Below, in pieces: positions 3,421 to 39,300 of a DNA stretch of 64,000 nt. The notes under the pieces were generated by a model that saw only the letters and a program-made list of their open reading frames with translations, had not been told where the DNA came from and searched no databases. The stretch is from NCBI GenBank assembly GCA_002170775.2, contig NHIP02000003.1, positions 155,029 to 219,028 on the forward strand, written 5' to 3'. Every line of letters begins with the position of its first letter. The stretch's first letter is position 1. Source of the DNA: Euryarchaeota archaeon TMED192 (GTDB lineage: Archaea > Thermoplasmatota > Poseidoniia > Poseidoniales > Thalassarchaeaceae). Position numbers and translations under genes: made by a program.

Positions 3421-4101
3421 ATGGTCAATGACCACGATGCGGGAGGATTCATCGATTTCATCTTCGATGAGTTGTCTGTTGACGAGATGACAGAGCGCGC
3501 GCGAGGCTTCTACGAGCAGATGGACATGCGCCGGACTACTCGTCATTTTTCTAGCAGGGCTGTCTCGCGGGAACTGATTGAACTGGCGATAAGAACCGCG
3601 AGTACGGCCCCTTCTGGAGCTCATCTTCAACCTTGGACATTTGTGGCGGTTTCCAATGAGGGGTTGCAGAAAAGGATTCGTGATGCTGCTGAGGATGAAG
3701 AGCGACGATTCTACAAAGATCGAGTCCCAGAAGCCTGGTCGGAAGTCCTCAGGCCACTGGGAACTGACCACATCAAGGCTCACTTGACTGATGCGCCTTG
3801 GGTGGTGATACTCTTCAGACAGAGCAAAAGGATCAGGGTTAATGGGGAAATGGGACCAACTTACTACTCTCAAGAATCCTGTGGAATTGCTGCTGGATTA
3901 TTCATTGCAGCAGTTCACAACATGGGCCTCACGACGCTGACCCACACGCCATCCCCAATGGGATTTCTGAGGGATATACTGAACAGACCGGATCACGAGC
4001 ATGCGATGCTTGTTATGCCGGTCGGTTATCCAGCAAGCAATGCCAAAGTCCCTGAAATTTCTCGAAAGGGGCTCGCAGATATATCAGATTTCATTGAATA
4101 A
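3421..4101 (+). CDS. Nitroreductase-superfamily flavoprotein, iodotyrosine deiodinase (IYD)-like
   Basis: RRTTRHFS...ASTAPSGAHLQPW is the nitroreductase FMN-binding N-terminus. The remainder aligns by eye with my recollection of animal IYD: EDEERRFYKDR...HIKAHLTDAPWVVILFRQ, YYSQESCGIAAGLFIAA, LTTLTHTP, MLVMPVGYPA...VPEISRK. Confidence 0.75.
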   Translation: MVNDHDAGGFIDFIFDELSVDEMTERARGFYEQMDMRRTTRHFSSRAVSRELIELAIRTASTAPSGAHLQPWTFVAVSNEGLQKRIRDAAEDEERRFYKDRVPEAWSEVLRPLGTDHIKAHLTDAPWVVILFRQSKRIRVNGEMGPTYYSQESCGIAAGLFIAAVHNMGLTTLTHTPSPMGFLRDILNRPDHEHAMLVMPVGYPASNAKVPEISRKGLADISDFIE

Positions 4102-4105
4102 TGAA

Positions 4106-4990
4106 TCATTCTTGTCCATCCATATTCTCGGTTGAATCCACTTGAAATAGGGAAAGAATAATTCCAGAGCAGATGATCATTATTCCTCCAATTATATCTC
4201 TTGTATCGAGGACCTCATTGAATAGCAGATACCCATAGGCTGTGGCGACGATTACTGTAAGGTAGGAGAAGGCGCTTACCCAAGCTGCATTTGCTCTGTG
4301 GAATGCATACGTGAGCCCTACTTGTCCTGCTCCAGCCCCCACTCCTATGCCAACTAGTGCCAACATCAAAATCGGATCTGAAATGACGTAAGCAAGACTC
4401 GGAATAGCAGGGAGTACAGTTGCTACAACGGAGAATGCAGCGAACCAGAATACGATGCTGAGTGCTTCCTCAGTCGCTTTTAGCCTTCTGACGTAGAGAT
4501 ATGCGACCCCAGCGAAGAATCCTGAGCCGAGAGCGAGTAATGCATTTTTCTCTATCGTCCTTAGGTCGGGCGATACAATCAGTAGGATCCCTAAGAAGGA
4601 CACTATGGCCAGAACCCATACTTGCGGGTGGACTCGCTCTGAAAGAAAGAATCCCGATAGGAGCGCAACAAAAAGCGGGTTTGTGTATTGCAAAGTTACC
4701 GCTTGGCCGATGGGGATCAACGCTAGTGCTGAGAAGTAGAGAATCATTGCAGCCAATCCGGTGAAGCATCTGAAAGCCATATTCTTGCGGTCATGCACCA
4801 CGAGATCCACCCTTGCGATTCTAGCGATGATGTAAATTGCAAACGCGATGACGAGCGATCGAACGAAAACCATCGTCCAGACATCTACCTCAGCGGAAGT
4901 CCATTTCACAAGAGCGTTCATGGAACCGAATGAGAAGCTGGCAAATAACATCCAAGCAACAGCTGTTCTTCGGGAGTCGTTGTCATTCAT
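4106..4990 (-). CDS. EamA/DMT-family permease
   Basis: About 10 hydrophobic helices arranged as two EamA-like halves. The Met at 4990 gives an ATGA overlap with the parA stop. The ORF can also open at 5008. Confidence 0.75.
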   Translation of the reverse strand: MNDNDSRRTAVAWMLFASFSFGSMNALVKWTSAEVDVWTMVFVRSLVIAFAIYIIARIARVDLVVHDRKNMAFRCFTGLAAMILYFSALALIPIGQAVTLQYTNPLFVALLSGFFLSERVHPQVWVLAIVSFLGILLIVSPDLRTIEKNALLALGSGFFAGVAYLYVRRLKATEEALSIVFWFAAFSVVATVLPAIPSLAYVISDPILMLALVGIGVGAGAGQVGLTYAFHRANAAWVSAFSYLTVIVATAYGYLLFNEVLDTRDIIGGIMIICSGIILSLFQVDSTENMDGQE

Positions 4991-5988
4991 GAAGGAATTA
5001 GCCCCCACCTTCTTTCAAGTTCCAATGTGACTGAAAGATAGTCACTACCACCATGGCTCGATGGATCATGTAGATGGATCGGAACGCCATGTGCCGGCGC
5101 CTCGGCTAGTCGGATGTTCCTTCTTATTGCGGGCTCTACGATTAGGGGGCCGTATGTGTCCCGAAGTTCATTCGCAACCTGCACGTTCAGGAGCGTTCTT
5201 TCATTGTGCATTGTTAACAATATTCCATCCACACCCAAGGTTGCTGTGAAGAGATTCCTCACTTCCCTTACGGTTCCTGCTAGCATTGCTAGTCCTTCCA
5301 ACGCAAAATACTCAGTCTGGACCGGGACTACCAGTCCATGGCTTGCTACCAATGCATTCACCGTTACAATACCAAGTGAGGGTGGTGTGTCAATTATGAT
5401 GAGGTCATAATGGGGGGATAGCGGAGCGATTGCATCTGAGAGTCTTCTTTCACGCCCTAACTGGCGAAGAAGTTCTTGGTCTAGTCCCACAAGAGACCTA
5501 TCTCCGACGATCATGTGTACACCGTCAACGGCTGTTTGATGGCGCGCTTCTATCGCTCGCTCAGGTTGCAGGATGAGGTCTCTGGTCGTGGCTGTAACGA
5601 GTCGCTTATCTACGCCGAGTCCAGTTGCACAATTACCTTGCGCATCCGCATCGATTACCAGTACTCGATGGCCTCTCAAACCGAGTTGCGCCGCGATGTT
5701 GATTACTGAAGTGGTCTTTCCAACCCCTCCTTTTTGATTGGTGATCGTAACAACTCTGGCCTGACCTCTTTGCGAAGGCGCACCCCTTGGAAGAGCGAGG
5801 GGGTTGTGATTTGTAGGCTTCTCACTCGATCTAGCGGCATCCTGCCTCTCGTGCTCTACAAACTCAACGTCGATGATGCGGGAATCCTGGGCATCCTCGC
5901 TAGTGTCGTGGTCGCCCCCCCCATACACAGTCCGAGGGGGTCTCAGAGACAGTTCAAGATACCGACTGTTTCGATCGAAGAGTATCAA
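4987..5988 (-). CDS. parA: ParA/Soj-family partition ATPase with ~80-aa N-terminal extension
   Basis: Deviant Walker A VTITNQKGGVGKTTSVINIAA, VLVIDADAQGN, IIIDTPPSLG and a C-terminal EAPAHGVPI. The first ~80 aa have no ParA counterpart. Confidence 0.85.
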   Translation of the reverse strand: MILFDRNSRYLELSLRPPRTVYGGGDHDTSEDAQDSRIIDVEFVEHERQDAARSSEKPTNHNPLALPRGAPSQRGQARVVTITNQKGGVGKTTSVINIAAQLGLRGHRVLVIDADAQGNCATGLGVDKRLVTATTRDLILQPERAIEARHQTAVDGVHMIVGDRSLVGLDQELLRQLGRERRLSDAIAPLSPHYDLIIIDTPPSLGIVTVNALVASHGLVVPVQTEYFALEGLAMLAGTVREVRNLFTATLGVDGILLTMHNERTLLNVQVANELRDTYGPLIVEPAIRRNIRLAEAPAHGVPIHLHDPSSHGGSDYLSVTLELERRWGLIPS

Positions 5989-6006
5989 GTTACGGTTTAG
6001 AGATGA

Positions 6007-8256
6007 CTATTCAGAGGACGTGGAAATTTGGATCCAGCCGATCACTCTGGATGTTGTTGCATCCATCGCAACGTCAAACGTGTAGTCTCTTGTGCGGTCG
6101 ACACTGGTCCATTCGCTGTGCAACACCACAGTGACAACTCCCGTAGAGAGTTCAGACGACAGTAAGTCCGAGATGTCGTCTATCTCCCCGGATACAGCCC
6201 TGTATCCAAGATGCCGCAGCTCTTCAGGCGAGTCGGGGATCATCACTTCATTGACTTCCTCGTAACGATTCTCATTGAGGAGCCTATTCTCGAGGTAATC
6301 CAAAGTTAGGGTTGAGGGGATAGCAGATTTATCCCATGAGACTGGATCGTCATTGCCCCAGTCTCCAGAGTCCATTATGGGACATGCCTCGTCATTGGGT
6401 TCCCAGTCCAGTATTATCCACCCAGATTGATCTTCGATGTCTACCCAAGATAGGTTCCAGTCCTCATTGTTCAAGGAATGAGTTGCCTCCCAAATATATC
6501 CTCCACCATCAAGTGCTTTGGCCGCATCAGAGAGAGGGTGCGAGGTAAGCAGACAGGTCGTGATTTGTTCTAGGTTAGTTCTACTTTCAGACTCATCGGG
6601 CATATGAGATGCCCAATCTTTCTTGCCTGCACTAGTAGGCCGATCGTCTCCTGGTGATGGCTCAGAATCGTATTCATCGTACCAATCAATCTCGTTCGTC
6701 CCCCTGGATGATGATGTGACTGTCATGTCCATCCGCATGTCCAATCTGCCCTCTGGCAGCGCAGCATCGCTAACCGCACTAGCGAAGACGCTGCACTGAG
6801 AGGTTGTCAGCGACTTGTCCAATCGTATGTCTGCAGTCTGCTGTACAGGCCAAGGGATATCGGGATCTACCAGAATATCCATCCTAAGGTATCCGAAACA
6901 GGCTTCTATCTCATCATTGGAGATAGAAATCGGATAAACATATCCGTGGATTGGGTCATTTCGCTCTTTCTTCACATTCCAAGTCCATGATTCGTCCTCG
7001 GAAGATGACGCCCCCTCCTCCAACACAGTGTCTCCGAAGAACTCCTGCAAATCCATCGGAAGTAGCGGGATTGAGAGCAACGGCGCAATGGCGCCTAAGC
7101 CAGGGAGTATGCTAGTACCGAAAGTCGTCGCTTCGACATGCGTCGATTCTCCGTCTGAATCTGTGAATTCTAAGTCTGTCTCTGTCCTGATAACGTCCCT
7201 ATCGGAAATATGGAGCCATGATTCGGTGGTCATGGATAATTTATTCTCTGGGTAAGACCAACCCGCATTGCTGCACTCTATCCCGTTTTCCCTCCACGTT
7301 TTCCCCTGGAGGTCTACATCCAACTCATGATTTAATGACTGCTTGGCTGCTAAACTTACTCTCCCGTATGCATCATACACGCTGTATGCACCCGTATGCT
7401 CTGTATCGCTAGGGAATATGGTGTCGAGATCAGTGCCTCTTGCCATTGAGAGAGAACCCATGCCCGAGATATCAACATCAATCTCAGAACAGACCTGATC
7501 AAATGCGCTCGGAGAGATGGCATCTCTGAGAATCGCTACCATGTCATCGCCCTCTATGTTGATCGTGGTTTGCTGGATTGAGAATTCAATCGAATCGCCA
7601 TACCTAACCTGCTGTGCAGTGAAAGACGAGTCGCGTTGCAAGAATACATAGAGAGATGCACTCAGAATCAGAGCGACTGCGAATCCCGCGGCCACCTGGA
7701 TCCGTGTGATTCTGAATGGTTGTGTTGGCGAAGTGCTTTCTTTCTCTGCCTTCTTCTCAACCTTTTTCTGCAGGGGCTTACTATCTTGCTTTTCTACAGT
7801 ATATCCTTGCTTTTCTACATCGAGTTGGATATCAGGTTCATCCTCTATGAGGATCAACTCCTTCGCTGATTCCCCTAGAACTGGTTCCTCTTCTTCGATT
7901 AGCTCTGCTTCGACTATGGACGATTCTGGGACATCTGGTGCGTCCATGGAGGCAGACATGGGTTTTCTTCGATCGTGTCGATCGAGTAACTTATCGATGG
8001 CATTGTCGATGTCTGCATCCATGGCCATATCCTTGGCCGCGAGTTTAGAGTTAGGATTAGACTGTTGAATTCGTTCGATTAGCTCGGATTTATTACCCGT
8101 TACTCGCAATCCCTTCTCCTTACACAGTATCTTGAGTTCGGAGACCTTCATGCTTTCAAGAACTTCAGAATCCACGTTAGCCGGCCTCCCTCTGCATGTG
8201 AAGCGGGGTGAGGCCGCTTTCAATACCTCCCCGTCTTGGATGGGTGGTTGAATCAC
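6007..8256 (-). CDS. SAP/HeH-domain single-pass membrane protein with large unassigned C-terminal domain
   Basis: MKVSELKILCKEKGLRVTGNKSELIERIQQ is a SAP motif beginning at the Met at 8151, a plausible true start. It is followed by an acidic/Lys-rich linker, one TM helix (ITRIQVAAGFAVALILSASLYVFL) and a ~540-aa acidic Trp-rich domain. Confidence 0.7.
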   Translation of the reverse strand: MIQPPIQDGEVLKAASPRFTCRGRPANVDSEVLESMKVSELKILCKEKGLRVTGNKSELIERIQQSNPNSKLAAKDMAMDADIDNAIDKLLDRHDRRKPMSASMDAPDVPESSIVEAELIEEEEPVLGESAKELILIEDEPDIQLDVEKQGYTVEKQDSKPLQKKVEKKAEKESTSPTQPFRITRIQVAAGFAVALILSASLYVFLQRDSSFTAQQVRYGDSIEFSIQQTTINIEGDDMVAILRDAISPSAFDQVCSEIDVDISGMGSLSMARGTDLDTIFPSDTEHTGAYSVYDAYGRVSLAAKQSLNHELDVDLQGKTWRENGIECSNAGWSYPENKLSMTTESWLHISDRDVIRTETDLEFTDSDGESTHVEATTFGTSILPGLGAIAPLLSIPLLPMDLQEFFGDTVLEEGASSSEDESWTWNVKKERNDPIHGYVYPISISNDEIEACFGYLRMDILVDPDIPWPVQQTADIRLDKSLTTSQCSVFASAVSDAALPEGRLDMRMDMTVTSSSRGTNEIDWYDEYDSEPSPGDDRPTSAGKKDWASHMPDESESRTNLEQITTCLLTSHPLSDAAKALDGGGYIWEATHSLNNEDWNLSWVDIEDQSGWIILDWEPNDEACPIMDSGDWGNDDPVSWDKSAIPSTLTLDYLENRLLNENRYEEVNEVMIPDSPEELRHLGYRAVSGEIDDISDLLSSELSTGVVTVVLHSEWTSVDRTRDYTFDVAMDATTSRVIGWIQISTSSE

Positions 8257-8314
8257 TTATTCGAGGGGTTCGGCATACGCTAGACTCAAAATATGAGAGT
8301 TTGAGCGTGCAAAC

Positions 8315-9274
8315 ATGGATCCTCGGCTGGTCATACTCTCAAGAGGGCCGGGTTTGTACTCAACGACTCGACTCATGGAGGAGTCGCAGAGATATGGATT
8401 CAGTACCAGGATTATAGATCCGATGGGCATAACCACCGCAGTCGATGGTGAAGGTGGACGTATTTACTACAAGGGCTGGCCTGTTGAAGCTGAAGCAGTA
8501 ATCCCCAGGATTGGCTTCTCAATTACTCGCCCTGGTGCTAGTATAGTTAGGCAATTCGAGCGACTTGGTTCGATTGTTCACAACACAGCAGATGCCATTC
8601 TTTTGAGTAGGGACAAAATTGCTGCTACCCAAGTAATGGCAGAATGCGGATTGCCTGTCCCAAAAACGATCAGAGTGGCTTCAATGAATGATTGCATGTA
8701 TGCACTTAGAGCAATTGGCAGTTATCCTCTGGTAATCAAGGCAAGTGAGGGAACTCAGGGGTCGAGCGTATTCCTAATGGATGATGAGGCTCGTGCTATC
8801 TCCTTGCTTTCCCAGATGTTTGAACGGGGTATGAGGCCACTGGTTCAGGAATATATTGGAGAGTCTCATGGCAGAGACGTACGGGCAATAGTAGTCAGGG
8901 GACGGGTTGTGGCGAGCATGTTGAGGAAGGCACGGGGTTCAGAGTTCAGATCTAATTTCCATCTCGGCGGTTCAGTCGAGGCTGTCAGCTTAACTTCCGA
9001 TCAGGCCAATGTCGCAGTCAAAGCCGCAAATGAGCTTGGATTAGATGTGGCTGGCGTGGATATGCTAGAGTCGGCATCTGGTCCACTGCTCCTCGAGGCG
9101 AATTCAAGCCCTGGCTTGGAGGGCATCGAGCGGGCGACGGGGATCAATGTGGCTGCTAGGATCGTGTCTAGTCTCCGAGCAAGAGTGAGGGAAGCATCAG
9201 AGGCGGCTGAAGAAATGCGCAAAGCTCTCGAGAATGGTGCGAGTAATCTTGGACGCGCTACTGAATCTGATTAG
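8315..9274 (+). CDS. RimK-family ATP-grasp ligase (alpha-L-glutamate ligase-like)
   Basis: ATP-grasp motifs PLVIKASEGTQGSSVFL, VQEYIGESHGRDVRAIVV, FRSNFHLGG and AGVDMLES..GPLLLEANSSPGLEGIE. The substrate cannot be told from sequence. Confidence 0.8.
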   Translation: MDPRLVILSRGPGLYSTTRLMEESQRYGFSTRIIDPMGITTAVDGEGGRIYYKGWPVEAEAVIPRIGFSITRPGASIVRQFERLGSIVHNTADAILLSRDKIAATQVMAECGLPVPKTIRVASMNDCMYALRAIGSYPLVIKASEGTQGSSVFLMDDEARAISLLSQMFERGMRPLVQEYIGESHGRDVRAIVVRGRVVASMLRKARGSEFRSNFHLGGSVEAVSLTSDQANVAVKAANELGLDVAGVDMLESASGPLLLEANSSPGLEGIERATGINVAARIVSSLRARVREASEAAEEMRKALENGASNLGRATESD

Positions 9275-9383
9275 GATTCGGCGTATGCACTTGTTGCCTC
9301 CTATTTGGGTTACATCTGGCCGAATTGGGGCAAGTATTGAAGTTGTGATTGGGGGGCTGAGGGTCGTTCCGTGAGGGACAGGG

Positions 9384-10496
9384 ATGCACGCACCCCCGGG
9401 TGTAACAGGAGGCGAGACGTTGAACAGACATGCTGGGCAGGGCTCGGCTTCACCTAGACAGCAGACTCTTCTAGGAGGGAGCAGACTGCTTCCAAATCGG
9501 CTTCATCGACTCAGAGGGTTGCCTTGGTTTGACTGCTGGAAAGCACAGCTCAAAGCAGAGCGGAAGAGTGAGCATACAATCAGAGCCTACGAACGTGCGG
9601 CAAAGGGAATAGCGAGTACGACTCTACCAGGCGAGGAATACGAGGGAAATGGTTTTCTTCATGTTGATGTAGAGCAGGCACACATTCTTCTGGATCCTGA
9701 TGACGGGCGGGTAGATGCATGGATATCTGGATTGGACGGGCTCAGCCCCTCAAGCATCAATGCCAGGATTGCGGCCTGCACTCATCTGCTGAGATGGATT
9801 GGCCACACATTACCTGAATGGGTATCGAGGCCCACAAGACGTAGGCCTCTTCCAAAGACGCTCTCGAGGCGAGAATTGACGAGGTTCAAGGCTGCTGTTT
9901 CCAAATTCAAGGACCCTATAGCAAGACCTCTGACAATAATGATGCTTGAAACAGGTCTCAGAGTTTCTGAAGCATGCAATATGGACGTTGAAGATATTGA
10001 CCTCGACGATCTTTCAGCCCTAGTTATCGGGGGCAAAGGGGAGAAAGATAGGACTGTCCTATTCACAGCCTTGACTTCGAATGAGATCGAGTCATGGCTA
10101 GTTGAACGCAAGTCGAGGGGGGACATAGAAGAAAGGAGTGGTAGGCGTCCTCTTTTCATATCTAAGACAGGTAGTAGGATTTCTCCGAGGTGGGTGCAGA
10201 AATTGATGGATAGGTTGGCAGAGGCATCTTCCATACCCAAGTCTCGATTGACGCCACACACACTACGCCACACGTTCGCCTCTGGCCTTCTCGAAAGGGG
10301 GGCAGATCTAGTTACAATTCAGAGGTTGCTTGGCCATGCTAGTATTGCAACTACCAGAGTTTATCTCGAGATAAGCGATCAGACTCTGAGGGAGATATAT
10401 CGGAGAGCTCAGCGTCCTATTCCCCCTCTGGGGGACCCCCCTCCAGAAGCGGATATCGAGGGGACTCTGCATAGCACGTACACATTATCTTCGTGA
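9384..10496 (+). CDS. xerA: Tyrosine recombinase, XerA/XerC/XerD-like
   Basis: An N-terminal core-binding region (SEHTIRAYERA) is followed by the catalytic domain: TGLRVSEACNM, ..GKGEKDRTV, LTPHTLRHTFASGLLERGADLVTIQRLLGHASIATTRVYLEI (R..H-x-x-R..H..Y). The ~50-aa N-terminal lead may be over-extended. Confidence 0.85.
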   Translation: MHAPPGVTGGETLNRHAGQGSASPRQQTLLGGSRLLPNRLHRLRGLPWFDCWKAQLKAERKSEHTIRAYERAAKGIASTTLPGEEYEGNGFLHVDVEQAHILLDPDDGRVDAWISGLDGLSPSSINARIAACTHLLRWIGHTLPEWVSRPTRRRPLPKTLSRRELTRFKAAVSKFKDPIARPLTIMMLETGLRVSEACNMDVEDIDLDDLSALVIGGKGEKDRTVLFTALTSNEIESWLVERKSRGDIEERSGRRPLFISKTGSRISPRWVQKLMDRLAEASSIPKSRLTPHTLRHTFASGLLERGADLVTIQRLLGHASIATTRVYLEISDQTLREIYRRAQRPIPPLGDPPPEADIEGTLHSTYTLSS

Positions 10497-10738
10497 GGGA
10501 TTCTTCTTCGATTTTCTCTTTCTGAGCTGTTCGACTCCTTGCCAAGACCTATCGGGCCTGACTTCTTGTCCCGAATGGCCCTCTATCGGACAGTATTTCC
10601 CACTCCTACACCGACTACAATTGTCCTTTGGAGGATGATCGATCTTTTTGGTGAGGCGCCCATACTTCCGTCGAGGCACGAGCCTGAGTTGTGATTGGCG
10701 GCAGATAGCCTTCACCCAATGCGAAGGCTCAATCCTCC

Positions 10739-11506
10739 ATGCTTCGTGGGCCCATCATGGGGCCCCGAGAAACTGTATCAATTCGCCTTTGGGCTCAAGT
10801 TGAGGCGGCGATGCCCAGAATGGAAATTGACTCAGAGAATTGTTTGAGGATGGTTGCAGGGAAATCGAAGAGGGGTTCCATAATACTCGGTGATGTTGCT
10901 CAGTCATTCATTCGTGCATTGGGCCCCTCGGACCCCCCTGTAATTCTGAGTGAGCTTAGATTCGACGAACAGCGTTGGGAGATTTTGGCTAGTGCCTTTG
11001 GAGTGGATTTGTCCATCAAATCAGAACCTTATTGGGGATTTGGTATTTTCACTAAATGCTTTCTAAATGAGATCTGCTTATCTGGATCTCGGCCGTCTGT
11101 TGATAGGATTGTCTTTGATGCGATGGCTTCCTTGGGGAGGAATCCCTGGGAGCCGTTTTGGAGAAGTCGTTTTGAGAAGAAATGTGGTGTGGACTTGGAC
11201 AGCCAGGAAAACCTATGGCGAGATTGCGAGATACGGGCTGAAAAGACCATGCGCGATATGCTGGATGAAATTACAAAGTTGTACATTGCCAACAAAGAAG
11301 AGGTTCCAACATCTACTTCATCGGATCTTGAAGCTGCTAAACTTGCGCTTGAGGATCGTAATGGTCAGGCCTTTGAGCGTGCCATGTCTAGGGCGTTTAC
11401 AACACTCAAAATAAAGAAGGGATTTGATTCAAAAAGCAAATATGGTGGTTGGGGGATACTGCTTGAAACCGAGGAAGTTCCAGTAGTAGACCTAACCGGT
11501 GATTGA
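10739..11506 (+). CDS. Hypothetical protein
   Basis: The 255-aa ORF has ordinary composition and no competing frame. No motif recognised. The start is uncertain (alternative Mets at 10757 and 10811). Confidence 0.45.
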   Translation: MLRGPIMGPRETVSIRLWAQVEAAMPRMEIDSENCLRMVAGKSKRGSIILGDVAQSFIRALGPSDPPVILSELRFDEQRWEILASAFGVDLSIKSEPYWGFGIFTKCFLNEICLSGSRPSVDRIVFDAMASLGRNPWEPFWRSRFEKKCGVDLDSQENLWRDCEIRAEKTMRDMLDEITKLYIANKEEVPTSTSSDLEAAKLALEDRNGQAFERAMSRAFTTLKIKKGFDSKSKYGGWGILLETEEVPVVDLTGD

Positions 11507-11511
11507 TCTGC

Positions 11512-11691
11512 TCATCCGAATATCCACTGTATGACGCCGTGTTGAGCGAGATAGATGACGATTGAGAAGACTATGCAGGCTCCATACACTGCACTTTTTG
11601 GTATCTGGATCGCATCTTCGGACTCTTCGTCGAAATAGCGAATTAACCCAGCAGCTTGCTGGATTCCACTGTTCTTGTCTTTCTTGGCCAC
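11512..11691 (-). CDS. secG: Preprotein translocase subunit Sec61-beta (archaeal SecG)
   Basis: Not in the ORF track (59 aa, GTG start). Manual translation: (M)AKKDKNSGIQQAAGLIRYFDEESEDAIQIPKSAVYGACIVFSIVIYLAQHGVIQWIFG. AGLIRYFDEE followed by one C-terminal TM helix is the Sec61-beta signature. An in-frame TGA lies upstream, with no ATG before the GTG. Confidence 0.75.
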   Translation of the reverse strand: MAKKDKNSGIQQAAGLIRYFDEESEDAIQIPKSAVYGACIVFSIVIYLAQHGVIQWIFG

Positions 11692-11751
11692 ATTGGCCGG
11701 ACCGTGGCAGTGTATTTGAAGGAAGCCCAGAATGTGAATGATGACTCAGGG

Positions 11752-12153
11752 TCAAGGTTCCAATGTCTCGATGAGTACGCAACCACCTTCTATCTCAGTG
11801 ACCGTACGAGCGACGCCCATTGCAGCATCTATGCCCATGGTCATCACTAACTCTCTTCTTCCGAGCGTAGGATTATCCAAAATTACGCGATGGGATAGCG
11901 ATGTCAGCATCGAACTGTCTACCACCTGCCAAATCCATTCATGTTCGGTCACAGTTATGATCGCCTCTACAGGAAGTAGATCTACGATTACATCTGAGGC
12001 TTTTTTCGCACGGAGGACGAGTTCTTCGAGTTTCTTTTTCCCCTTGCTGGGGGTTGTACGAACCCTCCTTCCAACTTTCCTTAGTATTCTCCTGCTTCCG
12101 CTCTTTATGTGCACGCATCCCATCCTGCGACCGAAGCCGCAAAGTGAAGTCAC
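11752..12153 (-). CDS. Hypothetical protein (weak Brix/Imp4-like resemblance)
   Basis: 133 aa. SGSRRILRKVGRRVRTTPSKGKKKLEELVLRAKKASDVIV loosely recalls the N-terminus of archaeal Brix-domain proteins. It competes with overlapping ORFs in other frames, but those are low-complexity. Confidence 0.35.
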   Translation of the reverse strand: MTSLCGFGRRMGCVHIKSGSRRILRKVGRRVRTTPSKGKKKLEELVLRAKKASDVIVDLLPVEAIITVTEHEWIWQVVDSSMLTSLSHRVILDNPTLGRRELVMTMGIDAAMGVARTVTEIEGGCVLIETLEP

Positions 12154-27977: not shown

Positions 27978-29618
27978 TCAAACGACATCGGTGTCATTCT
28001 CTAACTCATCGAGAATACCGTCGCCGTCATCATCATCATCTAGATGGTCATCAATCCCGTCGTTATCATGATCGAACTGACCCGTTAAGTCATTCCCATC
28101 ATACATCTCGAACCAGTCAGACAATCCATCGTTGTCATCGTCGGTGTCGATTAGATCGGAATATCCGTCGTTGTCGTGGTCATATCTGTATAGACTCCAC
28201 TCGCCGCCCTGCTCATCGACATCGAGTATGCCATCGTTGTCATCGTCATCATCGAGTGCGTCGTTGATTCCGTCGTTGTCGTGGTCTCTGGGCATATCGT
28301 CAGCATAATTCATCAGACCATCGTTGTCAATGTCAATGTCAACACAATCGTAGATGCCATCGTTGTCGTGATCGTAAATGTCAGTGAATGGATTGCCATC
28401 CTGAACCTCGATTCGGTCATCGAGTCCGTCACCATCATCATCGTCGTCGTCCGCATCAGGGATGCCGTCGTTGTCGTGGTCTTGGCCATCTGTGTCAATC
28501 ACGTCAGGGATACAGTCGTTATCATCGTCCGTATCTACATCATCTGGTATTCCGTCACCATCGTTGTCATTCTCACCATTGTTATCCTGGTTGTCAAGCT
28601 GCTGGTCTTGTTGCTGATCGGATTGTGTGCCTTGCTGGCCTTGCTCTGATTGTGTGCCGCCCTGCTGCTGCTGGTTTTGCCCATTCTGGTTGTTACCATT
28701 CTGGTCTTGGCTCTGTTGATCACCTTGCTGGCCGCCCTGTTGGCCGCCGTTTTGCTGCTGGCCTTGGCCGTTATCCTGTTGATTGGACTGCGAACCATCT
28801 TGGCCATTGTTGCCCTGCTGGCCGTCTTGTCCGCTCTGGGAGCCCTGGCCATTCTGGCCCTGCTGGCCCTGACCTTGTCCTTGGCCCTGACCTTGTCCTT
28901 GTCCTTGGCCCTGGCCTTGTCCTTGTCCTTGTCCTTGGCCCTGACCTTGTCCCTGGCCTTGTCCTTGTCCTTGGCCCTGGCCTTGTCCTTGTCCTTGTCC
29001 CTGGCCTTGTCCCTGGCCTTGTCCTTGGCCCTGGCCGCCGCCTTGTCCTTGTCCTTGTCCTTGGCCCTGTCCTTGGCCCTGACCTTGGCCCTGACCTTGT
29101 CCTTGGCCCTGACCGTCTTCTTCTGAGCCGCCGCCGCCTTGGGTGCCGCCGTCACCTGAGCCATCACCCTGGAAATCAGGATCATAGGCATCGGGGATTC
29201 CGTCGCCGTCTGAATCGCTCATCTCGCCATTTGCTGGGTCATTTGGATAAGGGTCACTGCCATCATCTTGGCCATCGCCGTCAGTATCAGCCGCATTGGG
29301 GTTGGTTCCCGTAGCGTATTCTTGTGAATTTGTGAGTCCGTCTCCGTCAGGATCGGCATTTGCATCTGTAGCTGAATTTGGATTTAGCCCATAGCCAACT
29401 TCCCATCCATCAGGCAAACCATCGCCATCGGAATCAGGATTATTCATGTCCGTTCCAGCAGACTGCTCTTGAGCATTGGTTAGTCCATCGCCATCCCAGT
29501 CTGCGCCACCATCATTCGGATCGAGAGGATCCGAACCATCAGCGGTAACGCCTGCGGCGCCAGCCATAGTCACTAGCAGTAAAGCTGTCAATATACTTGC
29601 ATTCTTTGTTATCTCCAT
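27978..29618 (-). CDS. Secreted acidic Ca-binding repeat protein (thrombospondin type-3-like repeats) with central (GQ)n and Q/N-rich tract
   Basis: Signal peptide MEITKNASILTALLLVTMAGAAGVTA. The N-terminal third has DxDxDGxxDxxE repeats (DWDGDGLTNAQE, DSDGDGLPDGWE, DPDGDGLTNSQE, DTDGDGQDD, DSDGDGIPD). The C-terminal third has 5 DHDNDG(I/Y)xD...DDDDxDG(L/I)xD modules. No membrane anchor. Confidence 0.8.
   Translation of the reverse strand: MEITKNASILTALLLVTMAGAAGVTADGSDPLDPNDGGADWDGDGLTNAQEQSAGTDMNNPDSDGDGLPDGWEVGYGLNPNSATDANADPDGDGLTNSQEYATGTNPNAADTDGDGQDDGSDPYPNDPANGEMSDSDGDGIPDAYDPDFQGDGSGDGGTQGGGGSEEDGQGQGQGQGQGQGQGQGQGQGQGQGGGQGQGQGQGQGQGQGQGQGQGQGQGQGQGQGQGQGQGQGQGQGQGQGQGQGQGQGQGQQGQNGQGSQSGQDGQQGNNGQDGSQSNQQDNGQGQQQNGGQQGGQQGDQQSQDQNGNNQNGQNQQQQGGTQSEQGQQGTQSDQQQDQQLDNQDNNGENDNDGDGIPDDVDTDDDNDCIPDVIDTDGQDHDNDGIPDADDDDDDGDGLDDRIEVQDGNPFTDIYDHDNDGIYDCVDIDIDNDGLMNYADDMPRDHDNDGINDALDDDDDNDGILDVDEQGGEWSLYRYDHDNDGYSDLIDTDDDNDGLSDWFEMYDGNDLTGQFDHDNDGIDDHLDDDDDGDGILDELENDTDVV
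28863..29114 (-). repeat. Imperfect hexanucleotide tandem repeat encoding an 84-aa Gly-Gln dipeptide tract
   Basis: CCTTGT/CCCTGG/CCCTGA units (reverse strand GGN-CAR) run uninterrupted except for one GGC-GGC-GGC. All variation between units is at synonymous positions. Confidence 0.95.
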
Positions 29619-32558: not shown

Positions 32559-33333
32559 GATTCTCCCTCCTGATTAGCTTCTGATGTTGACGTAGAATAT
32601 TCGCCAAGTCTACATCGGAATTGACTCCGATTTCCCTGTCATTGATGGATAATATCCGTCTGATCCCCATGCCGCTCCCTACTGCTGCAGCGCTCAAACA
32701 AGAGTAGGCTTCTGAGAGGGTGATCCGCTTTTGTAAGGGAGTTATACGGCTGTTACTATCTTGATTTAGGATCTGGTTAAGAGTGACTGATTTGACGGCT
32801 CCGAGATCTAATGCTGGCAATGCTATGTCTCCATTCTCAAGAATAAAGATGGGTGTGAATGTGTCTCCGTCGACTACGAGGCCTTGATTGATAAGCAGCC
32901 CCGCGTCTGCCCCATTGTAATTTGCCATTCTTCTGGCTTCGATATAACCTGCCCAGTCTCCTTGCTTAATTCTGGCCGAGTTCGGGCCAGGGGGGAGGGG
33001 TTGAGTGGAGAGGCGGATTTCTTTGGGCATTCTCGTCAGGGTTCTCGGAGATGCTGTGATTCGCTCGCTTTTATCGATATCTAATCTAACGAGATAAGGT
33101 GGTTCTTGTTCATTTGATGAACGGGACATGATATCGATTATGTCGTTCTCTTCGATCTCTAAATTGCTCCCAAAAAGGGAAGCGTGGGCCTCTATCAATC
33201 TCCTCAAATGTCCTTCGATATGAATAGGTCCATCTAATTCGACCCTGATGGTGGTGAATACCGATTCTGGGTCGCCCACGTTATGCTTCAGCGGGAGGTT
33301 GATTTCAAAGTGGCCCTTATCAGAACAAGTCAT
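32551..33333 (-). CDS. Fold-type IV aminotransferase-like protein, probable aminodeoxychorismate lyase
   Basis: The 260-aa size, weak class-IV features (LEGHLRRL, GLLINQGLVVDGDTFT, ...GAVKSVTLNQIL) and an 8-nt overlap with the pabB/A start support the call. The motif match is loose. Confidence 0.45.
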   Translation of the reverse strand: MTCSDKGHFEINLPLKHNVGDPESVFTTIRVELDGPIHIEGHLRRLIEAHASLFGSNLEIEENDIIDIMSRSSNEQEPPYLVRLDIDKSERITASPRTLTRMPKEIRLSTQPLPPGPNSARIKQGDWAGYIEARRMANYNGADAGLLINQGLVVDGDTFTPIFILENGDIALPALDLGAVKSVTLNQILNQDSNSRITPLQKRITLSEAYSCLSAAAVGSGMGIRRILSINDREIGVNSDVDLANILRQHQKLIRRENLD

Positions 33334-36300
33334 CGATATCGCGCGCTAGATCTTCAAGCTCGTCAATAACTTTAGTCTCAGTTGAGTCTTGTTGTGGCTC
33401 CAGTGATTCGGATAAGGGAGTAGTCTCCAGAGCTGAGGCTTCTTCTATGGTTTGTATTTCTTGTTCGATTTCTTCGTCGAAGAGGCTGTCAATTTCAACT
33501 TCTCGTGTGGATATTTCCCAAATTTCAGATCCAGAGGACCTTCGTGATCTTAGGGCGAAGGCGGCTCCTATGGCAGCCATGCTGATTGCCGTGGTTGCGA
33601 GTAGGATATTCAACTCACCATCGACCAGCCTATCGACGAATGTACTGCCTCCAGCTTCATCCTCATCTAGAATTCCCGTTTGATCTACCCATGGCGGGAC
33701 CATTACGGGACTGGCCCGGTATGTGAATTTCTCACCATCGAATGATACAACCTCAACATAGTGATTTAGGCTTCGGTTTAGGGACTCTGAGTCGATATTA
33801 TCGAAACTGAGTTCGGTGGATGCTCGATCGAGCGCTACGACTGCTGCATCTCGAACATCGGAGAATGCGGAAGTCGACACGTAGACGTGATACCCCACGA
33901 TATCATCATCAGTACTTTCCGACCAACTGAGCATTATTCTCGACCCTGCGGGGTTCCAGGCGGCAGTGAGGCCTGCGACGTCTGGACAGGCCGGACAGGG
34001 GTCTAGGCCTAGTTCATCTCGCAGAACTATGTCACTCGATTCCAATCCTGTTTCCCATGCATTTCCAGTTGAGTCCTTCGCAACAACCGCGACGAAATAT
34101 CTGCGATCAGGGATCATCTCTGAATATCCGTCCGGATTGGATGAAAATTCCACCAATGCCGGGCCGGACCAATCCCTGGATAGGGTCGCTGACGGCTCTA
34201 GAGTCGCAATGTTGTCTAACAGGAACGGTGAGTCAATGACCGCATATATCTCATATGACATGATATCTGGCGATGTACTTGGCTCGAATACCACGAACAT
34301 GCCGTCTCCGTGATCGGGATCGCGGTCGATGAGTGTTGGCGCGGGGATCCTTAGAGGCGGCTCTGAATCTCCCATGTTTGAGAGGGGGAGTACTATTGCG
34401 GTCTCTAGTTGATCGACGAATACATTTCCTGAGAGATCATGCACAGTCACAGCAACATAGAGCGGTATCTCTGGAATGATTTCTGAGCTTATTGAGTCTG
34501 TCAATGTACTCCCATAGAGTGCTTTATCAATCTCAATCTCGATTCTTGAAGACCCGCCTATCTGACGCTGCTCAATAACCGTAAGGCCGCATGATGATGG
34601 ATCATCAGAGCAAAAGAACCAGAGGGATGTGACATCATCTAGCGGGTGTTCGCTGACCCATATGGTGTAGAAGGCGAAGTCTGGTACATCGCTTCTGGTC
34701 CAAACTACATCTATTGATGTGCCGTCGTCTGAAGGATGGTCAAATGCATCCACATCGACCAATCTTGGGGGTTCGGGCCCTTCTGCCCCCAGATTATCAT
34801 ATGGAGTTGCATCGTCAGGAAGGATGTTGTTTAGATCCCCATTGCCCCAGTCATCGAAAGCAATGACTGCAACCCAGTAACGTATGCTATTCTGAAGTGG
34901 AATTCCGCCTGTTCCGCCAATTATGGCTGATGTGTTTCCACATCCCGGGACAATAGCTGCCATGGGCCATCCTTCCGCGCTAGTAGGGGGCGAGAAACCG
35001 GAAGCGGGCAGCACGTACACCGAATAGAATATGCAGTCTTCTTCCTCGTTCTCATCCCATGATACCTGCAAATAACCCCCATCATCGAACGGCAGATCCG
35101 AGGCTTCAACGCCACTTACGCGCGCAGGGGGAATCGAGTCATCAAGTCCCCCAGCCGCTACGATCGGACCGAAGAGTGTTGGATTGTCTTGTTCGTACTG
35201 GCCTGCTAGGTCAACACATGATGCAGCCAGCCAGATTGGGGTCGCGGGTGATACGTCTATGATCGTCTGGTTGCCCAAAGCCATTGACACATCGACCGAT
35301 GTTGGAATCGCATTCACATCTTCAATCTCAACTGTGGAATACCATATTCTGGTAGAGTGACTATCGAGATCGGTGCACAGCTGCCATTCAACAAGCAGAC
35401 TGCCTCCTGAGAAACCGAATGGGCTTGCATGCAGGGAGGACGGGGGGTCTGGAATGTTATCTACCGCTAATGCCGAACCGTTGTAGACCGATATTGGACC
35501 CATGGAACCGTCTGGATATCTGATCGATATGGCGGCCCCGTATTCGTGACCTGGCTGTATCGGCTGGACGGTGTCGTCAAGATAGGCGGTTTCGAAAGTG
35601 GCTCCAAGAGTCTGCAGATCTGATATCGAGAGTATGGGTGTGGATACGGTTTGAGGTATTCCATTGGCCTCCATGGCATCGGAATCCCACCCATTCGAAG
35701 CCATATCCCAGAGGAATATGTCGTATGAAACAAAACTGGGGTCCTCGGAAATCGCCCAATTCACAGTCAACCCGTCGCCTGCGTCATTCGGACGGTCGGT
35801 GAGAAGTGTGATTGATGTCGGTATCTCTTGTCTTATCCAATCGTATGTTATCCGTATCTCAATCTTGCCTGAGTCGGAGGGTGAGAGTGCAAATTCCCAG
35901 TTCGCATCTGAGGGAGTGCCGGCATTATCCACTGCGAGTTGGAGAAGTTGTTGGAGTCCTGTCTGAGTAGACAGGTTCCATGATCCGGTGTAATTGAGTT
36001 CTTTAGTCGTGGACCAAATTGGCTGAGAAGAAGAGAGGCTAGTGAAAATGGCTGGGTACCAAGAGAATGGGATTGCCCCATAGTACTGGGTTTGGCCCGT
36101 CGAGCTGGAAGGGTCAGGAACGATGAGCCCTGATTGGATTTCGATATCATTCCCCGGACGCGTGTGGTCTGTGATGTCAGTAGTTCTGCCCAGAATAGTC
36201 AGATCTAGATTATCTGCTCGGGCGTATTCATCGACGTATATCTGCTCGAGTGTCCAGTAAGGTCGGTACGCCAAGACGCCTTCGTCGGTAGCGAGAGCCA

Positions 36301-39300
36301 GTGTTGTGCCGTAGAGTGCTATGTCGTTCACGTATGAGTCCATAGCGGAGTCGTATGCCCTTACATCGTGGTCAACGACTCCGATTATGTTGAAGCCGGT
36401 TCCTGCTGCGACTATTCTTGAGCCGTCAGAAAGCATGGAGGTTACAGGCCAAGACTGCATCGACCCGGCGGCGGCGCCTACCTCCATCGAATAGGATGAT
36501 GCATTGTAATGGTATATTGGACCGGTTTCGGTGGCAATGTGGATGCCCCAATTGTCTGAAGCTAATGCTGTAACCGTATTGCTCGGAAGCATATCAAGAG
36601 GGTAGTCCCTCAGCATGGTACCGTTGTCTATCGACCAAGAAGAAATCCACGGTCTCGAGTTACCAAAGCCTGAATGAGATGCTAAAAGCACCCGTGGCTG
36701 AGTTAGCTGGACTATACTCCCATCAGGGAGAGTGAAGTTCTTACTAGATGCGGGTGCTATGGTGAAATCAGCGATCGCAGTGGACATCAGACCCTCCGCC
36801 TGAGTCACTCTCGCGACGACTGAGGCGTTATCGCTGGGGTCTGAGACAAAGGAAATGCCGCCTGGGCCGGTTACGACGAGTACATCACCGTATGGAGTGG
36901 TGGTGACCCATTCCAAATTCTGTGCATTGGGAGGTAGGCCGTCGTAGGATGTGATGGGATCGAGCCATTGGGAGGTTGACTCGTCATATCTTCCAATACC
37001 TACTGAGGTGGCTATGTGCGTCACATTGCCTACTCGCTCGAAATCTCCAATGTTGTTGGATGGCAATGCTGCCAGCAAGGCAGGCTCATCCCATATTCTG
37101 GTTGCAATGTCTATCGGTTGAAAGCCTGAGGCTGCATCGAAAACACTGGTCAGCCCCACATAGAGGTGATTTCCGTCGATGTACATCCCATCCATGGACC
37201 CATGAACCGCGCCTGGATGCGTCCTTCTCTGACTTGTGGTCAAATCGATTTTTATCAATCCCTGATAGGTGGTGGTTACCCACAACATATCGCCATCTAG
37301 AAGCATATCAACGATGATATCGTCATTGAAATTGTATGCCTTGACCCATGAAACATTTCCAGTCGTATCCAAATCGCCTTCAAGGACCGTCTCGCCATAG
37401 CCCGAGTTTCCTTGCCACTGTGCAGATGGGCCTATCGCAGCCCATACTTTCGTACCATTAGAGACGAATTCGACTACGTTGCCGGAAGGAAGGAGGTACA
37501 GTTCGTCGTATCCTCCCTGAATCAGGCCGGTTGGATCTAGTCGATCGACCCTGTTGATTCCGGAGTTTTCACCTGATCGTCCTATTGCGTATGCAGAGTC
37601 GGATAGGGGAGGTGCTCGAGCGATTGAGCTTCCATCCATCCCGGCACCAAGGACCGTGCCTGTCAGAAATAAGCTGCCAGAAGTCTCGACCCTGGATATG
37701 CCTCCTTGGTCCACATGGCTTGCTATCAGAAGATCGTCGTCATGCAGCAAGCCACCTGGAAAGACCGGTTCAGTTGCTATTCCATCAGACGGGAGTATGG
37801 TTGATTCGAATGAAGAGGAGGAATACGAGTACCTGTCGATTCCCGCATTGTCGGTATCAAATGCAACATACGCCATTGGATGGGCCTCGTCACAAGCGAC
37901 CGCTCTTGGGTCTGAATCTGAGAGATCCGAATTATCCCATGAATCGATCCATTCATCCGTTACGCTATTTCCATCATGGTCTTCGTAATCATATCTCGCG
38001 ACGAAGCCGGGGGACCACCAGGCTACCTGGCCGAAAGCCACGTGTACGATGCCGTCACAATGATTGAGATCGGCGGGATATGCGAAAGAACCGAGACTGT
38101 TGGAAGAATAAACAGTCCACTGATCTTGTGTACTATTCCATAGTGAGACATCTGACGAACCGCCTTGGTATGTCCCAATCCAAAGATCGTCTCCAACAGA
38201 CAGCATCGAGTAGACCTCATCATCTACATTTGCCGGCATCCCGGATCCGGGAGTCCATGGAGTGAGGAATGTGGAGTTGTTGGTATCCCACCTCAGTATC
38301 CCATCCATAGAAGCAAAGAGATGCTCGTCGCCCATGGATTCCATGCCCCTTATTGGGCCGGGTATGTCGTCCCACTCATCGAGCAGGAGCATGTCGGAAG
38401 CATTGTAGCGTCGTAATACAGACTCGCCGTAAGAAACCCAAAATTCACATCCATTGGATGCATTTGGGAAGCAGTCCCCTAAGAATTGGGCATTGACCCT
38501 CTCGACGTTTCCAGTGGTCCCCAGGGGATCTACCCATGATGAGGATGTTATGTTCCATCTTGCGATGTCCCCTGAGCCTGCGCTCCCGCCCCAGCCCTGG
38601 GTTTCTGTAACGCTCAGCCAGAGTTGGTCTTGGATCAATTCCATACCTCGTATCTGGCCATTATATCCGAGGCTGTCTGTAGTGTCTATCTCGCTCAGAG
38701 ACGAATTGCTGGTGAGATTGATTCGTGCTATGCTATCCCTGCTTTGCCACCACTGATTGCCTTGAGTGATTTGCTGATAATGCAAAATATCCTGATGGAT
38801 CGCGATTGCGGATGGCGGTTGATTGGGGAGCGTTGGGCCATTGGGGTTTGTTCCTAGATCCCAGTCAATTAGAGTGGTCCCGTTGGCCGCATCGATTAGC
38901 ACCAGTCCGAAATATCCCCCTGCCCAGATAGTGCCTGAATCTTGCCCTTCGACCAGCATGGTGATGTACTCATTCTCAATCACGCCAGATGTACCGTCCC
39001 AAGTACTGAGCCATACCTCATTTATCAGATCGTATCTGGCGATTCCGGTTTCTTCGACGCCGAGATAGAGTATCGTGCCGATTTGGACAACATCTGTCTG
39101 CTCCGAATCTGCAGCCGCAGTCCAGACATCTACCACTATGCCATTCAAAGTATCAATGATTCCCACCCCTTCGGAGGTTCCGGCATAGAGGCGATTCGCT
39201 TCCAATATGGAGACGCTCTCGACAAAACGAGAAGGTAGACCATCATCCTCACTCCAACAACCGACTAAATCGTATGTCCAATCCCACATGCAAGCACCCC

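Follow-up and report, generated by a model that had tools for sequence, protein, structure and literature searches.

We analysed a 64-kb stretch of DNA from the marine archaeon Euryarchaeota archaeon TMED192, hereafter the window, and describe a locus at which a gene for a protein with a SAP domain and a single transmembrane (TM) helix, which we call SAP-TM, is followed on the same strand by a gene for a ParA ATPase. The window belongs to Marine Group IIb (MGIIb; Thalassarchaeaceae), and its nearest species representatives are 86–90% identical. An EamA-family permease gene follows ParA, and genes for a RimK-type ligase and a XerA-like recombinase lie on the other side of SAP-TM on the opposite strand (Table 1). 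A first-pass annotation of the window had proposed that SAP-TM is a non-canonical partner of an orphan ParA.

Two of the gene models differ from those first proposed. SAP-TM had been taken as the 749-residue open reading frame (ORF), and we place its start at GTG 8175, which shortens it to 722 residues; this start is backed by a 100%-identical public protein of 722 amino acids (P0001) and by the conserved “MD..” N-termini just ahead of the SAP domain in SAP-TM relatives. For ParA, homologues make GTG 5928 the most likely start, and P0121, which is 92% identical, is likewise 313 amino acids long. ParA does lie just downstream of SAP-TM, but with this start the spacer after the SAP-TM stop codon is 78 nucleotides, not 18. 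We found neither a T-run nor an obvious TATA-like box in this spacer, so that co-transcription of SAP-TM and ParA is plausible. The overlap of the ParA stop codon (TGA 4989..4987) with the EamA start codon (ATG at 4990) in ATGA is as originally described.

The SAP domain, whose sequence in the 749-residue ORF is MKVSELKILCKEKGLRVTGNKSELIERIQQ, matches Pfam PF02037 with an E-value of 9.1e-12 and 44.7 bits, above the gathering score of 23.9, which bears out the earlier recognition of a SAP, or helix-extension-helix (HeH), motif near the start of the protein. In a set of 29 family representatives, taken from clusters at 50% identity and 23–61% identical to the window protein, 26 have the Pfam SAP match, residues L14, G27, L32 and R35 are invariant, and the overall layout is the same throughout. 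A profile of the family matches solved eukaryotic SAP domains, namely those of MKL1 (9.5e-7) and Tho1 (1.8e-6) and also those of Hcc-1, DEK, Ku70 and SIZ1. The same profile retrieved three proteins with 8–11 tandem SAP-like stretches (P0291, P0296 and P0374).

An acidic linker of about 120 amino acids leads from the SAP domain to one hydrophobic TM helix, an arrangement read correctly at first sight. The helix is also helical in a full-length AlphaFold2 (AF2) model, and a single TM helix occupies the equivalent position in 28 of the 29 representatives, the exception being P0258, in which this is only the second-ranked hydrophobic window. Across the representatives, the N-terminal flank of the helix is net positive in most and the C-terminal flank net negative or neutral in most. 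SAP-TM has no N-terminal signal sequence, and its six ectodomain cysteines, invariant in 29–41 sequences, all lie C-terminal of the TM helix. Given the missing signal sequence, the single TM helix, the flank charges and the distribution of cysteines, the topology indicators argue for a cytoplasmic N-terminus and an external C-terminus, with the SAP domain inside the cell, as had been supposed, and the large domain outside.

No part of SAP-TM is larger than the ectodomain, which also holds most of the invariant positions. The first reading could assign these roughly 540 residues to no family, and we likewise obtained no match in Pfam, NCBIfam or PDB sequences. An ectodomain-only AF2 model built from 38 sequences reached a predicted local distance difference test score (pLDDT) of 85.2 and a predicted template modelling score (pTM) of 0.83; it is beta-rich, with long antiparallel sheets. 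A Foldseek search of this model against PDB and BFVD gave no convincing match, only weak beta-barrel-like noise; the best match, the beta-barrel-like DUF1849 structure 6NTR, had a query-normalised TM-score of 0.22, and no function was assigned from it. The full-length model, from a 15-sequence alignment, had a pLDDT of 51 and was not used for fold searching. The modelled ectodomain appears to be an undescribed and possibly new fold, and it is probably disulfide-bonded.

The downstream protein matches AAA_31 with an E-value of 3.9e-49 and has an intact deviant Walker A motif, NQKGGVGKTT. Its nearest solved relatives are 8RAY (1.3e-56), which is ParA of Myxococcus xanthus (PMC12462528), and Soj of Thermus thermophilus (1WCV, 2.5e-48). 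It is far less close to the 220-residue archaeal “SOJ” structure 7DUT/7DV3 (7DUT, E = 5.8e-13). We take the latter protein to be SegA. As judged by these matches, ParA is a bacterial Soj-type partition ATPase, in agreement with its original naming as ParA/Soj from the KGGVGKT motif. Its N-terminal extension, put at about 80 residues before, is about 55 residues long from the homologue-backed start, and it is conserved in orthologues, with two motifs, PL[IV][IV]D[VA]EF.E and P[LM][DE]LP. SAP-TM is much the faster-evolving of the two proteins, at 36–40% identity versus 66–69% for ParA.

The linker of SAP-TM and the N-terminal extension of ParA have in common a short acidic-hydrophobic motif, IVEAELIE in the former and IIDVEFVE in the latter. 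In SAP-TM the motif often occurs in tandem pentads, as in other members of the family (IVEAEIFDAEIFDAEVVD). We searched for a strict eight-residue pattern, [VILMF][VILMF][DE][AV][DE][VILMF][VILMFT][DE], framed on the two proteins. In the long ORFs of the window (about 24,000 residues) it has two matches only, one in SAP-TM and one in ParA. Across the loci compared below, it has 189 matches in SAP-TM ORFs, covering 115 of 133, and 38 in ParA ORFs, covering 38 of 44, while in all other ORFs, 983,077 residues in total, it occurs once, with no match in the small protein “sm” described below. The specificity of the pattern against this background is striking, and the shared motif, as a feature of sequence, strengthens the proposed association of SAP-TM with ParA independently of synteny. 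SAP-TM retains the motif in lineages without ParA at the locus. The motif receptor is therefore something other than ParA alone, perhaps a common third factor or a site within SAP-TM.

At 50% identity, the full-length members of the SAP-TM family fall into about 35 clusters among 1.84 billion representative proteins. All named members come from metagenome-assembled genomes of Poseidoniales or Thermoplasmatota, some under the NCBI label “SAP domain-containing protein”, and we found in the literature no functional description of SAP+TM proteins or of ParA partners in Poseidoniales. We compared 132 loci, including that of the window. Wherever the flanks were covered, SAP-TM has a fixed place between RimK and a block of PUA, S8e, SRP19 and PolB genes, and RimK flanks it in almost all loci with enough upstream sequence. 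The loci fall into six gene-order configurations (groups A–F in Table 1; absence of ParA was judged within 5–8 kb of retrieved flank), which indicates that SAP-TM is the constant element and ParA a lineage-specific one, found behind it in MGIIb and in two or three deep branches. ParA or “sm”, when present, directly follows SAP-TM in the same orientation, apart from one inserted gene in L129. The neighbours EamA, nitroreductase, G3PDH, TM2 and subtilase vary between loci, and the adjacency of SAP-TM and ParA persists amid these differing neighbours in L046/L047, L130 and L131, with the one insertion in L129. The adjacency on which the first-pass annotation had relied therefore extends from MGIIb to these deeper branches, but not to 80 metagenomic loci in which no ParA is nearby. 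In all MGIIb loci with enough sequence, the block RsmB-unk255-XerA-RimK<>SAP-TM-ParA-EamA is syntenic. XerA at the locus co-occurs with ParA (groups A and C) and is absent within 5 kb in the ParA-less groups E and F.

Table 1. Features of the SAP-TM/ParA locus in the window, gene-order groups of the compared loci, and examples of the accessory genes
Feature	Position or loci	Strand	Details
EamA-family permease	4106..4990	-	Pfam EamA E = 4e-29; longest ORF 4106..5008
Soj-type ParA ATPase	4987..5928	-	313 amino acids from GTG 5928; longest ORF to 5988
ParA N-terminal-extension motif IIDVEFVE	5854..5877	-	Within PL[IV][IV]D[VA]EF.E
SAP-TM/ParA spacer	5929..6006	-	78 nucleotides, read from sequence
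SAP-TM gene	6007..8175	-	722 amino acids from GTG 8175; longest ORF 6007..8256, 749 amino acids
Ectodomain	6010..7635	-	About 540 amino acids; acidic (pI about 4.1), beta-rich, six invariant Cys
Single TM helix VAAGFAVALILSASLYVFL	7639..7695	-	Residues 161-179; mean Kyte-Doolittle hydropathy 2.29
SAP-TM linker motif IVEAELIE	7894..7917	-	Residues 87-94
MGIIb-specific short helix DNAIDKLLDR	7978..8007	-	Residues 57-66, about 20 amino acids after SAP
SAP (HeH) domain	8062..8160	-	Residues 6-38 of the 722-residue protein; Pfam PF02037
Divergent intergenic region, SAP-TM versus RimK	8176..8314		No repeat arrays
RimK-type ATP-grasp ligase	8315..9274	+	Pfam and NCBIfam matches
XerA-like (XerA/XerC-like) tyrosine recombinase	9384..10496	+	Pfam and NCBIfam matches; adjoins RimK
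Group A (MGIIb)	Window and 44 loci		RimK<>SAP-TM-ParA-EamA; ParA in every locus reaching past SAP-TM; no “sm”
Group B	L046, L047		up-SAP-TM-ParA; 25% identity; different flanks
Group C	L129, L130, L131		(up)-SAP-TM-ParA-sm; 30-32% identity
Group D	L045, L128		SAP-TM-sm; no ParA; SAP lysines lost
Group E	50 loci, at least some MGIIa		up-SAP-TM-sm; no ParA
Group F	30 loci		up-SAP-TM; neither ParA nor “sm”
“sm” examples	L130:11096-11542, L131:3598-4065, L129:12055-12543, L062:7250-7684, L045:3187-3675, L128:10609-11079
“up” examples	L062:3888-4907, L120:3708-4910, L046:359-1393, L129:6807-7886, L130:6730-7911

Two further genes recur beside SAP-TM outside MGIIb. The “sm” family is confined to Poseidoniia and has 162 members of 129–186 amino acids with a pI of 4.2–6.2. 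In the ParA-containing group C they begin KRGLGRGLDDLM or KKGLGRGLDDLL, or, over a longer stretch, MSEDKRGLGRGLDDLMAQNEIDLPFL or KKRKKGLGRGLDDLLAQHDTDLPFL, with the ParB-type peptide GLGRGLDDL[LM]. The N-terminus presumably corresponds to the ParA-activating peptide of ParB, for which we assume a consensus of about RGLGRGLDALL. In group E, which has no ParA, the peptide has decayed to DGRGLDHLMEQ. The ParB N-terminal motif consists of aliphatic and basic residues with a central arginine, and a 20-mer suffices to bind and activate ParA (PMC12462528). We detected no ParB/Srx or helix-turn-helix (HTH) domain in “sm”, and no Pfam or PDB match. In group C, “sm” overlaps the ParA stop codon in L130 and L131, while an opposite-strand TM2 gene is inserted in L129. 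Because it carries the ParB-like peptide, “sm” is the likelier cognate activator, and this was most likely its role in the ancestral cluster.

Its position behind ParA in three deep-branch loci also means that ParA was not ancestrally an orphan and that SAP-TM need not be the activating partner. The description of ParA as an orphan thus applies to the window and the MGIIb loci, where a ParB-type activator next to ParA was not found; one was seen only in the sister lineages L129–L131. In a two-round profile search, “sm” turned up neither in the window nor at any other MGIIb locus. No family member among the 162 bears the name Thalassarchaeaceae, and one of the group E type is named Candidatus Poseidonia. 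The slot taken by “sm” in L130 and L131 is held in MGIIb by EamA. SAP-TM does precede ParA, as had been pointed out, but the adaptor-first order proposed on that basis is weakened by group C, which shows the classical order of ParA followed by an adaptor.

The other gene, “up”, encodes a two-TM protein of 339–400 amino acids without a match in Pfam. Its external loop contains cysteine, and several members have a tail rich in Pro or Gln. Everywhere but in MGIIb and group D, “up” immediately precedes SAP-TM in the same orientation. Profile matches to “up” in MGIIb loci were artefacts of ORFs delimited from stop to stop, which extended into antisense sequence of the divergent RimK gene.

We also searched for the remaining parts of a partition system. 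A phmmer search with a Spo0J sequence found no ParB in the window, and the patterns GERRxRA and GLG[RK]GL are absent from it; for SAP-TM itself, Pfam gave no ParBc match. No SegB-like gene was found, the gene after ParA being EamA, in agreement with the earlier statement that no ParB or SegB partner gene is present. Centromere-like (parS-like) repeats, which had been suggested as something to look for near the locus, were seen in 3900–10600 only as chance-level short matches. Nor does the window give signs of an origin of replication: its cumulative GC skew is monotonic, and inspection by eye showed no Orc1/Cdc6-like ORF.

These results suggest that the SAP-TM/ParA locus encodes a membrane-anchored chromosome-handling system. 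Our tentative reading, to which we give a probability of about 40%, is that SAP-TM is a DNA-to-membrane tether that anchors a ParA module or is its cargo. SAP-TM would then be a Poseidoniia-specific single-pass protein that holds a cytoplasmic SAP domain on a disordered acidic linker of about 120 residues and exposes its ectodomain outside the cell. In the putative ancestral cluster, “up”-SAP-TM-ParA-“sm”, it would be the fixed membrane component. ParA, as a nucleoid-binding ATPase of the Soj type, would coat the nucleoid as ATP-bound dimers, and the SAP-TM anchor would engage the system through the rare acidic-hydrophobic motif that it has in common with the ParA extension. Chromosome–membrane attachment points might then be positioned or partitioned by the ParA cycle. 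The composition of the module would vary by lineage, and in MGIIb, where “up” and “sm” are absent from the locus, it would be reduced to SAP-TM and ParA. The proposal that SAP-TM is a non-canonical ParA partner is favoured by the rare shared motif and by adjacency, and it is weakened by the ParA-less loci and by “sm” as the likelier activator; activation of ParA by SAP-TM is a candidate role only.

Several points weigh against the tether reading. DNA binding by the SAP domain is predicted from its domain family, and in L045 and L128, two deep-branching homologues of 866 and 828 amino acids (L045:480-3080 and L128:8001-10487, one of them on a 3.0-Mb contig), the SAP-like HeH is stripped of all lysines (LRELRLLALEHELDMSGDAAALTERL). 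Contact of any kind between SAP-TM and ParA is likewise a prediction, as is a role of the module in segregation. The strict motif pattern was defined only after both proteins had been seen, and the loci in which it was counted are kin; all 132 are phylogenetically related, so that their counts are not independent events. In the 80 metagenomic loci, which are MGIIa at least in part, SAP-TM has its SAP domain, linker motif, TM helix and ectodomain but no ParA, and L045 and L128 likewise lack ParA, which means that SAP-TM needs no adjacent ParA to function. Retention is moreover complementary, since MGIIa keeps “sm” without ParA whereas MGIIb keeps ParA without “sm”, a pattern awkward for a single obligate machine. 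Finally, gene order is generally stable in this group, and its conservation here could be a matter of inherited synteny.

The last point leads to the alternative that SAP-TM and ParA are neighbours by descent only. SAP-TM would then be an envelope protein, for example an anchor or assembly factor of an S-layer or other surface structure, its SAP domain would have another role, and ParA, independent of it, would act on the chromosome or on a different cargo, with the stable gene order of Poseidoniales accounting for the adjacency. Such an account is in keeping with the synteny of the whole MGIIb block from RsmB to EamA, with the persistence of SAP-TM without ParA in more than 80 loci, with the size of the ectodomain and its share of the invariant positions, and with the much faster evolution of SAP-TM. 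Synteny alone does not explain why the shared motif occurs almost nowhere else in roughly 1 Mb-equivalent of ORF translation. Also against this account, ParA and “sm” keep their place right behind SAP-TM amid the turnover of other neighbours. We regard descent alone as a rather unlikely explanation, though one to be taken seriously.

A second alternative is that SAP-TM of MGIIb is itself the ATPase-activating partner of ParA, membrane-anchored and non-specific, in place of a lost mini-ParB, “sm”. MGIIb is exactly the clade with ParA but without “sm”, which neither profile nor family searches found in its loci, and the 64-kb window has no ParB. In addition, MGIIb SAP-TM alone carries a short helix, D-x-A-I-D-x-L-L-x-R, between the SAP domain and the linker motif (41 of 42 MGIIb loci versus 0 of 86 others), in which D57, A59, D61, L63, L64 and R66 are invariant in an alignment of SAP-TM homologues. 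The helix bears a loose likeness to the GLDxLL half of the ParB peptide, but it lacks the preceding basic GLGR segment, the seat of the key arginine (PMC12462528). Neither the helix nor any other part of SAP-TM is matched by the “sm” N-terminal peptide profile, and as a relocated ParB peptide the helix is only a weak lead. Moreover, the clade-wide correlation between the helix and the absence of “sm” amounts to one evolutionary event, and an activator may be encoded outside the 64 kb of the genome seen here. Replacement of ParB by SAP-TM is thus improbable in our judgement. We consider equally improbable its fuller form, in which Thalassarchaeaceae would have lost the mini-ParB and SAP-TM itself would couple the nucleoid to ParA through the shared motif, the DxAIDxLLxR helix or both, in a two-protein, centromere-independent, membrane-tethered segregation system.

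Least likely of all, and very doubtful, is a one-component regulator of the ToxR/CadC kind, in which the ectodomain would sense an external cue and the SAP domain would bind DNA near the membrane and control transcription: architecture and topology fit, but SAP domains are generally non-sequence-specific binders, the locus and its surroundings show no operator-like repeats, tandem pentads of a motif common to ParA occupy the very long acidic linker, and SAP-TM is consistently linked to partition genes rather than to a regulon.

Comparison with known systems places the tether reading between several of them. The SAP-linker-TM layout is formally that of the eukaryotic HeH/LEM inner-nuclear-membrane proteins (Heh1/Src1, Heh2, MAN1 and LEM2), a likeness drawn at the outset that holds now that the SAP domain is confirmed by profile: in both, an N-terminal HeH domain faces the DNA compartment and is joined by a long disordered linker to a membrane anchor. 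HeH/LEM proteins have two TM segments, a C-terminal MSC/winged-helix domain and a small lumenal loop. In contrast, SAP-TM has one TM helix, an external beta-rich domain of 540 residues and no MSC domain; its domain is SAP proper and not of the LEM subfamily, and nothing beyond this small domain points to common descent. With bacterial ParABS the locus shares a ParA close to M. xanthus ParA and T. thermophilus Soj and, in sister lineages, a ParB-type peptide on “sm”; it differs in its extra ParA N-terminal extension and in that no ParB/Srx CTPase, HTH protein or, at the locus, parS-like repeats were found.

The membrane hubs of ParA-family ATPases (HubP of Vibrio, FimV of Pseudomonas and TipN of Caulobacter) are single-pass proteins with a large, highly acidic, repeat-bearing cytoplasmic region. 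SAP-TM resembles them in its single pass, its acidic linker with tandem pentads and its genetic association with a ParA-family ATPase. HubP has an external N-terminal LysM domain, and the hubs have no DNA-binding domain, whereas SAP-TM has the opposite topology, a SAP domain, no LysM match in Pfam and no sequence similarity to them. Archaeal SegAB also pairs a ParA-superfamily ATPase with a candidate partner, but ParA here is closer to bacterial Soj (1e-56) than to 7DUT (6e-13), no SegB-like gene was found and the gene order is another. ToxR, CadC and TcpP, like SAP-TM, have a cytoplasmic DNA-binding domain at the N-terminus, followed by a linker, one TM helix and an external domain with conserved cysteines; unlike them, SAP-TM has a SAP domain, the only domain detected in its cytoplasmic part, and not an OmpR-type winged helix, it is linked to partition genes, and no operator repeats were found. 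By analogy, SAP-TM would work most like a hybrid of ParABS, the acidic membrane ParA hubs and DNA–membrane tethers, while belonging to none of them.

Other features of the window were also recorded. Between RsmB and the unassigned 255-residue protein lie two small genes (11492–12153, minus strand; L001:1769-2412), which keep their positions in MGIIb and in groups C, D and E; the product of one, of 65 amino acids, has a weak Sec61beta match (E = 1.5e-4) below the gathering score, and that of the other, of 118 amino acids, has a basic N-terminus and no match. Three larger genes lie elsewhere on the minus strand. One (27978–29618) encodes a 546-residue protein with a very long (GQ)n tract and flanking Asp-rich repeats that resemble calcium-binding repeats of the TSP3 type, and another (33320–41731) a predicted surface protein of 2803 residues with an N-terminal signal or anchor and, at the C-terminal end, a TM helix and then an acidic tail. 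The third (55363–56397) encodes a 344-residue protein with a very basic N-terminus; a PD-(D/E)xK nuclease-like motif (ITPDLLLLDD...AWIDAKHF) was noticed by eye in its C-terminal half.

Marine Group II archaea are uncultured and among the most abundant archaeal groups of the surface ocean. To our knowledge, chromosome segregation in Euryarchaeota outside the model halophiles is essentially unknown. The locus offers testable candidates, namely a membrane protein with a predicted cytoplasmic SAP domain and a bacterial-type ParA with a distinctive N-terminal extension, to which the sister lineages add a minimal adaptor of about 150 amino acids in which little besides the ParB-like ParA-activating peptide is retained. 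The rare motif common to SAP-TM and ParA provides a precise mutational handle. If the two-protein system proposed for Thalassarchaeaceae were true, prokaryotes would have a functional counterpart of HeH/LEM chromatin–membrane tethering. Should SAP-TM tether DNA to the membrane, the SAP/HeH-linker-TM design, which is otherwise known from the eukaryotic inner nuclear membrane, would have a prokaryotic example.

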